This document shows, piece after piece, positions 15,227 through 23,847 of a stretch of 64,000 bases of DNA (the stretch's first letter is position 1; each line of letters opens with the position of its first letter). The DNA lies in NCBI GenBank assembly GCA_963793095.1, contig CAWBYY010000004.1, positions 305,107 to 369,106 of the forward strand. The letters run 5' to 3'. Made by a program: the position numbers and the translations under genes. Origin of the DNA: an uncultured Chloroflexia bacterium (lineage in GTDB: Bacteria > Chloroflexota > Anaerolineae > Anaerolineales > UBA4823). The notes beneath the pieces were generated by a model that was not told the DNA's origin, made no database searches, and was given only the letters and a program-made list of their open reading frames with translations.

Positions 15227-16388
15227 CTATATCCAGTTTTGTAATCTTTCCATTGCTTCCACTATTCTTGCCAGTGTTTGTACAAGAGCGATCCGAATAA
15301 ATCCCTCTCCGTTTTTTCCAAATACAGTTCCCGGCGTAAAACTCACCCCAGTATTTTCCAGGGCGGAGTTAACAAAATCATCACTTCTTCTGCCCCCGGG
15401 TACTGGGCACCACACGTACAGCGTTGCGCCAGAAATAAACGGTCTTAAACCCATTTTATGCAGGTAGCTGATCACAACCTCTCTTCTCTGGCGGTATTTT
15501 TCATTTCGGGCAGTCCTCCACTGCTGGTCACCGGTAAGCGCTTCGACAGATGCCTCAATGATTGGTTTAAAATGGCCGCTGTCAATGTTTGTTTTTAATT
15601 TATAAAAATTTGAAATGGCAGCTGGATTTCCGACAACCGCACCTGACCTCCATCCAGCCATGTTATGCGATTTTGAAAGTGAATTGAATTCAACCGATAC
15701 ATCAATCCCGTACTCGCAGTCCAGTATACTGGGAGCAGTTGAATTGTCATCAAGCACCTGGGTATATGCTGCATCATGGCAAAGTATAAATTTGTGTTCC
15801 ACTGCTGATTCAATAATTTTTTTAAAAAAATCCTTCGATGCAGTCGCGCTGGTAGGGTTATTTGGATAATTGAGCCAAAATAATTTTGATCTCTCCAGAA
15901 TAACTGTATCAAGCTGTTCCAGATCAGGTAAATAATGGTTTTCTGGCGATAATGGCAGTTTGACCACTTCCCCTCCTGCAAATAACGCCGCTTGCTCGTA
16001 AGTTAAAATATGCCGGGTCAGGAACCAGCACCACGTCGCCTTTATTAATAAACGACTGGGTCAGGTTGAAAATACCTTCTTTTGATCCTAATAACGGCAA
16101 AACCATGGTCTCAGGATCCAGATTGACATTGTATTCACGCTTATACATGCTTGCCCAGGCTTCCCTCAGATTATTGGTTCCCTTATGAGGCTGGTAACCA
16201 TGCTCATCCTTGTTTTTTGCGTGAAGAATCAATTTATCAATAATGGATTCAGAAGGCGGCATATCTGGTGAACCTACATCCAATCTGATCACATCAACCC
16301 CGCTTTTCTGCATTTTTTGAATTGTCCTTCCCTGGTTAGCGAAGAAAAGTTGATTCAGATTATCCATTCTTCCAGCAGGTTCAATCAT
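15227..16388 (-). CDS. Class I/II PLP aminotransferase (DapL-like) inside the aro operon; one +1 frameshift
   Basis: LDVGSPD, LLGSKEGI, PDPAY, LNYPNNPT, HDAAY and EFNSLSKSHNMAGWRSG. Removing one base from the A-run at 16005-16008 restores PDPAYLTYEQAALFAGG. Confidence 0.88.
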
Positions 16389-19655: not shown

Positions 19656-20675
19656 TTACCGACTGATAGTTCGGCCTACTGCCTGAGCGACCGCTTCGAC
19701 TTCTTTCATCATGTCTAGAAATCGCTCTGGCTTAAGGGACTGCCCGCCATCACTGAGAGCTTCACCGGGATTGGGGTGGACTTCCACCATGAGACCGTCC
19801 GCTCCTGCTGCGATCCCAGCCCTTGCGACTGCGTTTACATACTCCCAATGTCCTGTGCTGTGGCTTGGATCCAGGATTACCGGCAGGTGGGTCAGCGATT
19901 TCAAGACCGGAATGGCGTTGATATCGGTTGTATTCCGGGTAGAGGTCTCAAATGTACGAACCCCCCTCTCGCAGAGAATTACCCTTTTATTTCCATGAGA
20001 GAGAATGTATTCAGCAGCCATTAATAACTCTTCCACGGTTGCCATCATGCCTCGCTTTAATAACACCGGGTGTCCACTTTCCCCAACCTCATGGAGCAGG
20101 TTGAAATTCTGCATATTACGGGCTCCGATTTGAAGGACGTCCACATATGGCATCATTATTTGGATCTGAGATATGCTCATAACTTCAGTCACAATTGGCA
20201 GACCCGTCACTGCTTTTGCCTCTGCCAGCAGTTCCAGCCCTTCTTCCCTCAAGCCTTGAAACGAGTAAGGTGAGGTTCGCGGTTTATATACCCCTCCCCT
20301 GAGAGCATGCGCGCCGGCGTTTTTAACCGCTTTTGCGGCTTCTAATATTTGCGACCGGCTTTCTACCGAGCAGGGACCCGCAATAATCACCACACCCTTA
20401 TCGCCTATTTTCATGCCATCAAAATTGAAAATTGAATTCTGGGGTCTGAACTCCCGAGAGGCAAGTTTAAAAGGTCTTGATATCGGCAACACCCGGTCTA
20501 CGCCCGGCAAATGTAAAAATTGATCTTTAAAGACCGGACGGCTCTCACCCACCGCGCCGATAATAGTCCTCTCTTCCCCGGTTGAGATATGGGCAGTCAG
20601 ACCAAATGATTCAACCCGTTTAACGACAGTTGTTATTTGCGGTTCTGTCGCATCGGTTCGCATAATTATCATCAT
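19656..20675 (-). CDS. aroF: DAHP synthase, type I-beta with N-terminal regulatory domain
   Basis: IAGPCSVES, YKPRTSPYSFQG, QIGARNMQNF, LCERG, DPSH and IEVH-like MVEVHPNP. Confidence 0.96.
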   Translation of the reverse strand: MMIIMRTDATEPQITTVVKRVESFGLTAHISTGEERTIIGAVGESRPVFKDQFLHLPGVDRVLPISRPFKLASREFRPQNSIFNFDGMKIGDKGVVIIAGPCSVESRSQILEAAKAVKNAGAHALRGGVYKPRTSPYSFQGLREEGLELLAEAKAVTGLPIVTEVMSISQIQIMMPYVDVLQIGARNMQNFNLLHEVGESGHPVLLKRGMMATVEELLMAAEYILSHGNKRVILCERGVRTFETSTRNTTDINAIPVLKSLTHLPVILDPSHSTGHWEYVNAVARAGIAAGADGLMVEVHPNPGEALSDGGQSLKPERFLDMMKEVEAVAQAVGRTISR

Positions 20676-20705
20676 GTCGGTATCCTCCTAGACTATCTTT
20701 CATCC

Positions 20706-21080
20706 TTATGAAACATTATCAGATAAATCCGGCCGTAATATTTTCGCCTCTCTGAGATATACATGCCGGATTTCTTCCTGAGTCAATTCCGTGTTCCAGT
20801 GGATAAGTACCCGGATGCACTTTTCCAAACTATCTGGAGCAGTTATCTCCTGGGAACCAAATAATGGGACCATGCACCATCCAATTTGGCGGGCTGCTTT
20901 AGCAGGGAAAACAGCATCCAGGTCCTCCGTGACGCTGAAAAATACACTGGCGATTGAGTCTGGTTCCATCTCCGGATTTCTTTCTAGGATTGTCTCCAGC
21001 AATTCCCGTGTGGCATCCAGGATCTGCTCTTTGTTATTTTTTGTTACTGTTATCGCTCCGCGTACACCCCGGACTGGCAT
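20706..21080 (-). CDS. aroH: Chorismate mutase, AroH class
   Basis: MPVRGVRGAIT, FFSVTEDLDAVFPA, CIRVLIH and HVYLREAKILRPD; start placed at ATG 21080. Confidence 0.95.
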   Translation of the reverse strand: MPVRGVRGAITVTKNNKEQILDATRELLETILERNPEMEPDSIASVFFSVTEDLDAVFPAKAARQIGWCMVPLFGSQEITAPDSLEKCIRVLIHWNTELTQEEIRHVYLREAKILRPDLSDNVS

Positions 21081-21093
21081 AATCTTCTTCTCC

Positions 21094-21126
21094 AAATAAA
21101 AAATGCGAGACCGCTGGCCTCGCATT
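21094..21126 (-). terminator. Intrinsic terminator in the aro operon leader (attenuator terminator)
   Basis: Minus strand AATGCGAGGCC-AGC-GGTCTCGCATT-TTTTATTT: 11-bp stem with one G.U and a U-tract, ending about 14 nt before the aroH ATG. Confidence 0.85.
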
Positions 21127-21155
21127 CTGGATAATATTTATTCTATCTTTTCCGC

Positions 21156-21233
21156 TTACGCGTAACCAACGGCTGCATTATTTATGCTGCCATAATAATA
21201 GTAAGCAGAAAAGTATAACTTTATCTTAATCAA
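21156..21233 (-). CDS. Tyr-rich leader peptide (25 aa) MIKIKLYFSAYYYYGSINNAAVGYA
   Basis: TTG start, run TAC TAT TAT TAT, 6 Tyr and 1 Phe in 25 codons; lies between a promoter and a terminator ahead of the tyrosine pathway operon. SD is weak. Confidence 0.8.
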   Translation of the reverse strand: MIKIKLYFSAYYYYGSINNAAVGYA

Positions 21234-21255
21234 TGTTCTTTACCAGAATGCATAG

Positions 21256-21284
21256 AGTCTAAACCAGGCGATTAAATACGTCAA
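21256..21284 (-). promoter_or_regulatory. Sigma70-type promoter of the aro leader
   Basis: TTGACG (21284-21279), 17-nt spacer, TAGACT (21261-21256). Confidence 0.7.
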
Positions 21285-21327
21285 GGGATTTTAAGGGTTA
21301 TTTTGAGATATACTCAATCTAACATAA

Positions 21328-23847
21328 ATGACCTCCCTAAGTATAGCTGATATGCCAGAAAAGTCTCCAGGGAAGGCTGTATTGATCAGCTTATTCCTGT
21401 TATCAGGTGCACTGCTAGTATTCGAGATAACCCTGACGCGGTTGTTTTCTGTAACCCAGTTTTACCACTTCGCATTTATGGTAGTAAGCATTGCATTGCT
21501 TGGTTTCGGAGCAAGCGGTACAACCATAGCTATTTTCCCTTCATTTGTAAAAAATGATCAATATCTCACCACTTCTGCGTTGGCTCTGGCAGCTGCAATT
21601 TCAATCATTGCTTCTTACTTAATATCGAACTGGTTGCCTTTTGATTCATTCAGCATTGCCTGGGACAGGTCGCAGGTTTTAATCCTGATCATCCATTACA
21701 TCTCACTTGCCAGCCCTTTCTACTTCGGCGGTATGCTGGTTGGCTTTCTCCTGTCCAAATATCCAGATTCAGCAAACCGGACTTATGCATATAATCTCAC
21801 TGGCTCCGCAGTGGGATGCCTTTTTGCGGTAATTCTGCCTAATCTGGTCAATGGGGTCGGCACAGTTGTTGCAGGTTTTACCCTGGGGGTTTCTGCCGCC
21901 CTTATCCCATCAGTATCATTATTGATAAAACAAAGAAAAACTGTTCATCCCAAGCGGTTATCCATGATATTCATCACAGCGGGAGTTCTACTTTTTATAT
22001 CAATGATCGACCTCAGTTTTCGGTATCTTGACAGGACACCGTACACATGGCTGGAATTAAAAATATCCCCATATAAAAGCCTTTCATATACCCTTCAGTA
22101 CCCTGGTGCCCATATTGTGTCAAGCCAATGGAATTCCTACTCAAGAATTGATCTGGTCAGGAGTGAAAGCATCCGTTCGCTTCCCGGTTTGAGCTATCGA
22201 TATCCAGGCACCATCCCAGAACAGGATGGATTGTTAAAAGATGGGGATGACCTTAATCCCGTTATAAAAAAGCTTGCAGAAAATGAGATTTATACATACC
22301 TGCCAACCTCTGTAGTTTACAATCTCAGACCATCTGGAGATGTTCTGGTTCTGGAACCAGGTGGTGGGCTGGAAATTCTTACAGCTCTCCACCATGATCC
22401 AAAAAGGCTTACTGTTGTTGAAGAAAACCCTCTGATTGTCCAGGCTGCTTCCCAAATTTACTCAAGCAGTTCTCTCAATTATGAACCTGGTATGGCAAGA
22501 AATTACCTCAAGAGTTCAAAGGATCATCACGATATTATTGTTTTATCACTGATCTCTAATTATCATCCGGTCCGTTCCGGTGCTTACAGCCTTGCTGAAG
22601 ATTACCGCTATACGGTCGAGTCAATTCAGGACGCGGTAAACAGGTTGAAACCAGACGGTATTCTGGTATTTACCAGGTGGCTCCAAAATCCTCCCAGCGA
22701 ATTCCTGCGGGCTTTTGCCATCAGTTTGCATGCACTTGAAGGTCTGGGAATCAACCCCCGGGATACTATCATTGCATTCAGGGGCTTCAATACAGGAACT
22801 TTGCTGGTTAAAAAGACTGGTTTTTCAGCAGACGAGCAGTCCGAGATAGAGCGGTTCCTTGAAGAAAGGAGTTTTGATCTGGTCTACGCGCCCGATATCA
22901 ATCCTTCTTTGGTCAATAAATACAGCGTACTACCGGAACCGCTGTATTATTTGGCTTTTCAGGATATTGTTAATTCAAAAAACAGGTCCGAATTTTACCG
23001 TAAGTATAGTTACGACGTATCCCCTCCAACAGACAATAGACCGTTTTTCGGACAGTATTTTAAGTGGAGCCAGACCTCTCAAATTCTTGCAGAATACGGA
23101 AAAACATGGCAGCCTTTTGGGGGCGCAGGTTTTTTTGTAGTATTTGTGTTACTGTTTTTGACAGGTTTTATCGCTGTCCTCCTGATCATAGTCCCGGTTG
23201 TGATTGCACAGATCAGAATATCAAATCTTCCCCATTCTACAGAAGTTAATAACAGACCTGACGCGGACCTTAAGAGACGCTTCTTTCCTTATTTGTTATA
23301 TTTTGGTTTCCTTGGATTTGCCTTTTTGATGGTAGAGATTCCCTTAATACAAAAATTTATCCTGGTGCTGGGTCATCCTGCCACATCTCTAACCACGATA
23401 CTATTCACAATATTATTTTTTTCAGGTTTAGGTAGCATGATGAGTCCAAAACTTAATTTAAACCTTGTATTTATATTTTTATTGATCATACTTTTGTTGA
23501 TGTCGCTGTTTCTTGCTGTTATCTCCAATCAATTATTAGGTCTCCCACAAATAGTTCGGATCGCTCTGACGATAGGAGTAATCGCTCCGGTTGGCTTTTT
23601 AATGGGCATTCCATTCCCAAAAGGGATCGGGTTGACAACCTCCAGCGAATCTAATCCAATCTTGATCCCCTGGGTCTGGGCGGTAAATGGCTCCACATCG
23701 GTAATCTCTTCGATACTGGCAGCTCTGATTGCATTATCCCTTGGTTTTAACTGGGTTTTTATAATTGGCGGTCTCTTTTACCTTGGATCGTACCTGGTCG
23801 CGCTGAGAATATTCAATCTCCGCCCTTTTCAATACCTTTCCCGGTAA
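21328..23847 (+). CDS. Polytopic membrane protein with central spermidine-synthase-like SAM-binding domain
   Basis: About 7 N-terminal TMs (FEITLTRLFS, YAYNLTGS), then WNSYSRID, VLVLEPGGGLEI, DIIVLSL and PPTDNRPFF, then about 7 C-terminal TMs (VEIPLIQK, WAVNGSTSV). Confidence 0.8.
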   Translation: MTSLSIADMPEKSPGKAVLISLFLLSGALLVFEITLTRLFSVTQFYHFAFMVVSIALLGFGASGTTIAIFPSFVKNDQYLTTSALALAAAISIIASYLISNWLPFDSFSIAWDRSQVLILIIHYISLASPFYFGGMLVGFLLSKYPDSANRTYAYNLTGSAVGCLFAVILPNLVNGVGTVVAGFTLGVSAALIPSVSLLIKQRKTVHPKRLSMIFITAGVLLFISMIDLSFRYLDRTPYTWLELKISPYKSLSYTLQYPGAHIVSSQWNSYSRIDLVRSESIRSLPGLSYRYPGTIPEQDGLLKDGDDLNPVIKKLAENEIYTYLPTSVVYNLRPSGDVLVLEPGGGLEILTALHHDPKRLTVVEENPLIVQAASQIYSSSSLNYEPGMARNYLKSSKDHHDIIVLSLISNYHPVRSGAYSLAEDYRYTVESIQDAVNRLKPDGILVFTRWLQNPPSEFLRAFAISLHALEGLGINPRDTIIAFRGFNTGTLLVKKTGFSADEQSEIERFLEERSFDLVYAPDINPSLVNKYSVLPEPLYYLAFQDIVNSKNRSEFYRKYSYDVSPPTDNRPFFGQYFKWSQTSQILAEYGKTWQPFGGAGFFVVFVLLFLTGFIAVLLIIVPVVIAQIRISNLPHSTEVNNRPDADLKRRFFPYLLYFGFLGFAFLMVEIPLIQKFILVLGHPATSLTTILFTILFFSGLGSMMSPKLNLNLVFIFLLIILLLMSLFLAVISNQLLGLPQIVRIALTIGVIAPVGFLMGIPFPKGIGLTTSSESNPILIPWVWAVNGSTSVISSILAALIALSLGFNWVFIIGGLFYLGSYLVALRIFNLRPFQYLSR

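Follow-up and report, generated by a model that had tools for sequence, protein, structure and literature searches.

A conserved tyrosine- and phenylalanine-codon leader before the shikimate and tyrosine operon of Anaerolineales, a probable ribosome-mediated transcription attenuator

Described attenuators and how the aro leader compares with them

The textbook leader-peptide attenuators are those for Trp, Phe, His, Leu, Thr and Ile/Val, and the biosynthesis of tyrosine is classically controlled by repressors (TyrR) or by T-boxes. Here we describe a leader RNA in a 64,000-nucleotide stretch of DNA (the window) from an uncultured Chloroflexia bacterium, which lies before an operon for chorismate and tyrosine biosynthesis and is hereafter called the aro leader. 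Like the E. coli pheL-pheA leader (RF01859; the trpL and hisL paradigm), it has a run of codons for aromatic products in a short leader peptide, the 1:2 / 2:3 / 3:4 pairing logic and an intrinsic terminator that closely precedes the first biosynthetic gene, and it also shares with the E. coli paradigm a terminator that is more stable than the antiterminator, with what would be a kinetic decision between the two. Unlike pheL-pheA, to which it has no detectable homology, it carries Tyr and Phe codons rather than Phe codons only, it would control a nine-gene chorismate and tyrosine operon rather than pheA alone, and it is found in Chloroflexota (Anaerolineales); its antiterminator strand lies within the last codons of the upstream open reading frame (uORF) and is predicted to invade the terminator loop as well as the 5' arm. 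An Rfam scan of positions 20000-22500 at E ≤ 10 gave no family that reached its threshold and no T-box match. Membership of Phe_leader (RF01859) was rejected (20.6 bits and E = 2.7, against a gathering score of 55), and the sub-threshold matches to this family and to L20_leader were both set aside as driven by the generic shape of a hairpin plus a terminator.

The closest characterised case, compared here by functional description only, is the aroR leader (Phe-Tyr-Phe) of Corynebacterium glutamicum upstream of aroF, encoding a DAHP synthase (Neshat et al. 2014, as described in PMC11802643), which according to the account of it in PMC11802643 responds to Phe limitation while Tyr availability is without effect on transcription. 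As described there, aroR is likewise a ribosome-mediated attenuator with aromatic codons and with a DAHP synthase gene in its operon, but it has three aromatic codons and comes from Actinomycetota, where the aro leader has 7-8, and the two operons differ in content. In the literature searched, aroR was the only characterised leader found to have a Tyr codon in its regulatory block.

Two further comparisons are instructive. As in the Tyr-specific T-box leaders of Bacillota (tyrS and some aro genes), scarce or uncharged Tyr-tRNA would lead to antitermination, but a T-box binds the tRNA directly and needs no translation, whereas the aro leader has a conserved uORF. The enterobacterial ilvL leader of ilvGMEDA resembles it in having codons for several amino acids in one leader peptide (here Tyr and Phe, with an occasional Trp), although the amino acids, the RNA and the taxon all differ. 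A search of the full-text literature, the scope of which did not take in the survey of Lopatovskaya, Seliverstov and Lyubetsky, turned up no account of a leader with Tyr codons from Chloroflexi or Anaerolineae. The original prediction, made from the sequence of the window, knew of no characterised poly-Tyr leader on a whole shikimate operon in Chloroflexota; this holds for Chloroflexi and Anaerolineae in that search, but an aromatic leader before a DAHP synthase gene does have a precedent in aroR of C. glutamicum as PMC11802643 describes it. The mechanism would be a classical one; the RNA family that would use it spans the order, is apparently uncatalogued and has a principal specificity that would be new.

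Layout of the leader and of the operon behind it

All elements of the leader lie on the minus strand of the window. The promoter has TTGACG as its -35 element (21284-21279) and, after a 17-nt spacer, TAGACT as its -10 element (21261-21256), 22 nt 5' of the uORF start. The uORF, MIKIKLYFSAYYYYGSINNAAVGYA, occupies 21233-21156 and has 25 codons, with a TTG start at 21233-21231 and a TAA stop at 21158-21156; Tyr codons are at positions 7, 11-14 and 24 and a Phe codon at position 8. The regulatory block TAC TTT TCT GCT TAC TAT TAT TAT (Y F S A Y Y Y Y) is at 21215-21192. Behind the uORF an intrinsic terminator (21128-21094) consists of a stem at 21128-21100 with the core AUGCGAGGCC / GGUCUCGCAU, the loop AGC and the U-tract UUUUUUAUUU, and it is followed by the aroH Shine-Dalgarno sequence GGAG (21093-21090) and the aroH ATG at 21080 (together 21093-21078, from sequence and Pfam). 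A translatable uORF is therefore placed between a promoter and the first gene of the operon, and an intrinsic terminator between that uORF and the gene. In a consensus scan for terminator-like sites over 10 kb this hairpin ranked best, with 13 pairs.

Two nested helices precede the terminator. P1 is a 13-bp helix between region 1, CUUUUCUGCUUAC (21213-21201), which overlaps the Tyr/Phe codons Y-F-S-A-Y, and a part of region 2, GUAAGCGGAAAAG (21159-21147), which spans the stop codon. P2 (21196-21165) is formed by the Tyr-Gly codons AUUAUGGC and an apical stem pairing with GCCGUUGGU, and the first half of the antiterminator strand is tied up in it. The minimum free energy (MFE) fold of the whole leader, -50.1 kcal/mol (z = -4.3 against dinucleotide shuffles, 0 of 200 of which were as stable), includes both the P1 helix and the terminator. 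The promoter, the 25-codon uORF with its four consecutive Tyr codons, the helix between the Y-F-S-A-Y codons and the stop-codon region and the terminator with its U-tract had all been predicted from the window alone, and each was recovered at the coordinates given above; a caveat made at the same time is upheld for the window, where the TTG start has a weak or no clear Shine-Dalgarno sequence, although most relatives use ATG.

An additional element, absent from that first list, is an antiterminator pairing between GCCGUUGGUUACGCGU (21173-21158; codons A V G Y A stop) and AUGCGAGGCCAGCGGU (21125-21110), which takes in the terminator 5' arm, the loop and the first bases of the 3' arm; 15 of its 16 positions pair in the window. 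In the family the equivalent string is GCC GUU GGC, the codons A-V-G, which is the reverse complement of GCCAACGGC, the top of the terminator with the end of the 5' arm, the loop and the start of the 3' arm, and an extra CGC pairs with GCG at the base of the 5' arm. Antiterminator and terminator are mutually exclusive.

The operon (21080-12025, minus strand) is tightly packed and its nine genes, assigned by Pfam, cover the entire route from DAHP to tyrosine. In order they are aroH, a type I chorismate mutase (21080-20706; PF07736, E = 6e-46), a DAHP synthase with a ferredoxin-like domain (20675-19656), the prephenate dehydrogenase gene tyrA (19617-18727), aroA for EPSP synthase (18684-17311), aroE for shikimate dehydrogenase (17307-16390), a class I/II aminotransferase (about 16388-15227, frameshifted in the assembly), aroC for chorismate synthase (15224-14043), an aroK-aroB fusion for shikimate kinase and dehydroquinate synthase (14039-12465) and aroQ for a type II dehydroquinase (12468-12025). 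Neither pheA nor any trp gene was found by Pfam within the nine-gene operon. The gene order behind the leader is syntenic in relatives, with aroH-DAHPS-tyrA in all 20 that were examined.

Some further observations were made in this region. The aminotransferase is split into two overlapping ORFs on the minus strand, 16493-15924 and 15967-15227, and contigs from three public metagenome runs (X1, X2 and X3) are one base short at 16005 compared to the window, suggesting that the frameshift is probably an assembly error or a strain-specific indel and not a true pseudogene. In one relative (L213, G032:C30) pheA is inserted between tyrA and aroA within an otherwise conserved operon, so that the same leader would there control both the Tyr and the Phe branches. 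Opposite the leader a divergent ORF of 839 amino acids (21328-23847, plus strand) had no Pfam match at E ≤ 0.001. A run of uncertain kind (X25) contained a 209-nt contig over 21121-21329 and only two other low-depth fragments in 20 kb, and it was set aside as RNA evidence.

Conservation, codon content and covariation

AroH was searched for in 61 genomes, the window's own and 60 from its genus, family and order, and the 450 nt upstream were read for the best 30 matches. A short Tyr/Phe-rich uORF ending 73-94 nt before aroH was present in 30 of these best 30, with the consensus ..RFFAYYYFYG..AAVGGA and then a stop codon, and a promoter of the form TTGAC[AGT]-17-TAnAnT was found 5' of the uORF in all 30 relatives; the TTGACG-17-TAGACT of the window is identical in L002 and L003, which are of the same genus. 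A covariance model (R1) found one copy in the window's own genome and matched 171 of 401 sampled genomes of the order, in 76 of 123 genera, nearly always as a single copy per genome and including several complete single-contig genomes of the families f15 and f16. In a phylum-wide sample the model gave no matches outside the order except one that was marginal, and a class-wide search picked out Tyr/Phe leaders ahead of aroH in three further families, all of them weak and diverged. The aro leader is not a product of chance and is conserved across the order Anaerolineales. A degenerate DNA pattern run on a species-genome collection was discarded as too permissive, 64 of the 80 listed loci being chance matches in GC-rich genomes; the 16 of the 80 listed loci that remained after filtering with the covariance model all belong to Chloroflexota MAGs (labelled Anaerolineales, Anaerolineaceae or Anaerolineae).

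The uORFs hold clustered codons for end products of the pathway, the operon comprising tyrA and the common aromatic pathway. Among 60 distinct leaders the means per 27 residues were 3.95 Tyr, 3.03 Phe and 0.38 Trp, and Tyr made up 15.2% and Phe 11.7% of leader residues compared to 3.2% and 4.3% in the long ORFs of the window, although this set of 60 was filtered partly on aromatic content and the unfiltered 30 of 30 is therefore the cleaner statistic. The copy in the window is unusually Tyr-biased (6 Tyr and 1 Phe), and the mixture of Tyr and Phe codons across the family suggests that the family senses Tyr and Phe, not Tyr alone. The proposal of a tyrosine-sensing leader accordingly fits the Tyr-dominated copy from which it was made and is refined for the family, where the two residues are mixed. 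Given that Tyr is without effect in C. glutamicum aroR (as PMC11802643 reports it), Tyr sensing should not be assumed from codon content alone.

Rare second copies of the leader occur, one before a separate DAHP synthase gene and one before pheA. The latter (L195; G665:C249:14459-14565, minus strand) precedes a gene for prephenate dehydratase, and its uORF, MNNKIFIVNCKFDFIDG.., has Phe codons and no Tyr, which argues that the codons are matched to the gene under control. The pheA of the window's own genome directly follows a leuB-like gene and lacks a leader of this kind.

Other leaders came to light alongside these. In other families of the class, the model matched before aspartate kinase genes in L039 (1501-1610, minus strand) and L042 (1501-1608, plus strand); the uORFs there, MTTTMMTTTPKRVAVASS and MSTGTMMTTTPHRVAVASSWM, each ending in a stop codon, are Thr-rich, and a similar design of GCCGU.. 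and a ..CCAAACGG.. terminator loop follows, making them candidate Thr (or Thr/Met) attenuators, possibly on the same scaffold. A simple scan of the window's own genome also picked out, outside the window at G000:C1:137892-138050 (plus strand), an Ile/Leu/Val-rich uORF, MFVISLIIILISLLVLLVLIENPQRVWAARRIRKD, and then a terminator, 34 nt upstream of a dihydroxy-acid dehydratase-like gene (ilvD) and with pheA about 12 kb downstream; this is a candidate branched-chain amino-acid leader attenuator.

Conservation at the nucleotide level is striking in the 3' half of the uORF and in the terminator. Covariation was assessed on a model-fitted alignment of 97 matches, 79 of them distinct, the model encoding only P2 and the terminator and not the antiterminator. 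Across the 79 distinct sequences the antiterminator was 95.0% paired, with compensatory (double) changes at 7 of 12 pairs; it beat 500 of 500 shuffles on all five measures, and controls in which the partner was slid by 1-3 columns gave 30-54% pairing. The amount of antiterminator covariation is limited because its core is so highly conserved. The terminator was 98-99% paired, with compensatory changes at 5-7 pairs in the family alignments, and the P2 core (ACGGC:GCCGU plus the apical stem) was 84% paired, with double changes at 5 pairs (79 sequences). The G that opens the antiterminator strand covaries with each of the two bases that it can alternatively pair with, which is the signature of a switch. 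The orthologous aroH leaders, named at the outset as the place to look for Tyr-rich uORFs and covarying stems, have both, as the uORF is Tyr/Phe-rich in 30 of 30 and both terminator and antiterminator covary. The nucleotide motif GCCGUUGGCGG is retained in another reading frame in three relatives (L006, L015 and L029), which suggests that the conserved 'AAVGGA' tail reflects a constraint on the RNA and not on the peptide.

So high a conservation of the RNA core, its retention out of frame in those three relatives and the large structured domain formed by the P1/P2 hairpin are also what might be expected if a protein or ligand bound the leader, as in a riboswitch or a T-box-like or TRAP/PyrR-like switch, with the uORF incidental to a U/A-rich internal loop. 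We consider this very improbable. The reading frame itself is kept: the four codons preceding the conserved Gly fall within an ORF with a start codon in 30 of 30 leaders when read in the Tyr/Phe frame, compared to 7 and 15 of the 30 when read in the other frames, and without exception the loop reads in register as UAU/UAC/UUU codons. Moreover the Tyr codons are replaced by Phe codons in the pheA-linked copy, the stop codon is positioned in 30 of 30 so that a terminating ribosome would cover the antiterminator strand, and no Rfam family, T-box included, matches even at E ≤ 10.

Folding under a ribosome footprint and the proposed attenuation

When the leaders were folded sequence by sequence, nearly all contained the nested hairpin. 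P1, linking the codons just 5' of the aromatic run to the stop-codon region, was present in the MFE of 28 of 30 leaders; in P1b the Ala codon GCC pairs with Gly codons GGC, and in P2 the Tyr-Gly codons pair with GCCGU. The sequence of P1 varies by lineage while its complementarity is maintained, cognate strands pairing at -12.8 kcal/mol compared to -10.1 kcal/mol for non-cognate strands, with 0 of 5000 permutations as good.

Each leader was then folded under a ribosome mask; counted from the first base of the A-site codon, this footprint took in 15 nt on the 5' side and 12 nt on the 3' side. With the full terminator included, the window sequence formed the terminator (8 of 8 bp) when there was no ribosome or when the ribosome was at the stop codon, and with the ribosome on the Tyr run it formed the antiterminator (11-12 of 12 bp) and lost the terminator. 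Such equilibrium switching with the full terminator was seen only in the window and in L002, its closest relative; in the other 28 of 30 leaders the terminator was thermodynamically favoured even under the footprint mask. As the terminator is the equilibrium fold in these 28 of 30, the switch must be kinetic, which is beyond proof by folding programs. In the E. coli trp leader, too, the terminator is the equilibrium fold and the choice is kinetic.

This equilibrium result is the one expected for a kinetic switch, and for this reason a co-transcriptional intermediate, the leader ending at the last antiterminator nucleotide, was folded instead. With the ribosome on the Tyr/Phe run the antiterminator formed in 26 of 30 leaders, compared to 5 of 30 with the ribosome absent and none of the 30 when it was placed at the stop codon. 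In these simulations the outcomes are the three-state logic of a classical attenuator, with superattenuation when the leader is untranslated, termination when translation is completed and read-through on stalling. The modelled folds also contain an anti-antiterminator (1:2) that overlaps the regulatory codons, and in most of them it takes a stalled ribosome to free region 2.

The dominance of the terminator at equilibrium in most relatives would also suit a terminator that is not regulated, whether constitutive or leaky, or a hairpin that marks a small RNA's 3' end, with the uORF tuning expression by, for example, mRNA stability or re-initiation and without sensing amino acids. This we hold to be very improbable, as such a terminator would be costly before the sole aroH/tyrA/shikimate operon, covariation preserves a pairing that destroys it, the codon enrichment is specific to Tyr and Phe, and the codon content follows the downstream gene. 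Equally poor are the prospects of the transcript 5' end as the main antiterminator of the window, in a ribosome-independent or additional geometry, for although GCAUUCUGG (21251-21243, in the 5'-UTR segment) and CCAGAAUGC (21130-21122, at the base of the terminator) are perfectly complementary over 9 nt (-19.3 kcal/mol, z = -3.4 against shuffles in the window), this pairing does not appear in the MFE fold, is lacking (z about 0) from most of 29 relatives including the same-genus L002 and L003, may lie partly 5' of the start site, which would be expected about 7 nt downstream of the -10 element, and is superfluous in that the conserved antiterminator accounts for the switch without GCAUUCUGG; it was rejected as the family mechanism, being real in the window but lineage-specific and not conserved.

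The leader is therefore, in our judgement, very probably a classical ribosome-mediated (leader-peptide) transcription attenuator of the nine-gene aro/tyr operon. This reading was already part of the original prediction, and it is supported by the sequence-level tests of the reading frame, the promoter, the covarying terminator and antiterminator, the anti-antiterminator and the conserved operon. From these we infer that the uORF is translated, that stalling depends on the charging of Tyr- and Phe-tRNA and that termination is regulated. Transcription would start from the TTGACG-17-TAGACT promoter, and the leader RNA would fold co-transcriptionally so that P1 (21213-21201 with 21159-21147) encloses P2 (21196-21165) and buries GCCGUUGGUUACGCGU (21173-21158), while a ribosome would translate the 25-codon uORF. 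With ample charging of Tyr-tRNA (and Phe-tRNA), the ribosome would reach the stop codon and its footprint would cover the antiterminator strand, so that the terminator (21128-21100 and the U-tract) forms and transcription ends before aroH. Should no ribosome be loaded, P1 and P2 would retain the antiterminator strand and the terminator would form too. When charged Tyr-tRNA or Phe-tRNA runs short, the ribosome would stall on YFSAYYYY and its footprint would melt the 5' strands of P1 and P2, and the freed strand could then pair with the emerging 5' arm and loop of the terminator (21125-21110), allowing RNA polymerase to read into the operon. Read-through would depend on the pairing of GCCGUUGG with the terminator loop.

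A wider reading, which we put forward tentatively and think less likely than its alternative, is that this is the first natural leader-peptide attenuator with mainly tyrosine regulatory codons and that Anaerolineae have in it a portable attenuator chassis, retargeted by codon swaps. The core of such a chassis would be a GCCGUU strand in the last uORF codons that invades a terminator loop with ..AACGGC.., and its variants would be the Tyr/Phe leaders before aro-tyrA, the Phe-only leader before pheA (L195) and possibly the Thr leaders before aspartate kinase (L039 and L042).

A complete shikimate and tyrosine operon would here be under a Tyr/Phe-codon leader, in an abundant and poorly studied phylum. 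The aro leader merits an entry as an RNA family, from which the annotation of hundreds of Anaerolineales genomes would benefit; because Rfam has no matching family, its uORF and terminator would be missed by pipelines that rely on Rfam. It is also a naturally occurring example in which to ask whether attenuation can be driven by Tyr codons; in C. glutamicum aroR, on the account in PMC11802643, it reportedly is not.

The leader is, in addition, a simple handle on transcription-translation coupling in Chloroflexota, a phylum in which we know of no demonstration of such coupling. If the chassis reading is true, the order-wide presence of the leader would imply that transcription and translation are tightly coupled in Chloroflexota.
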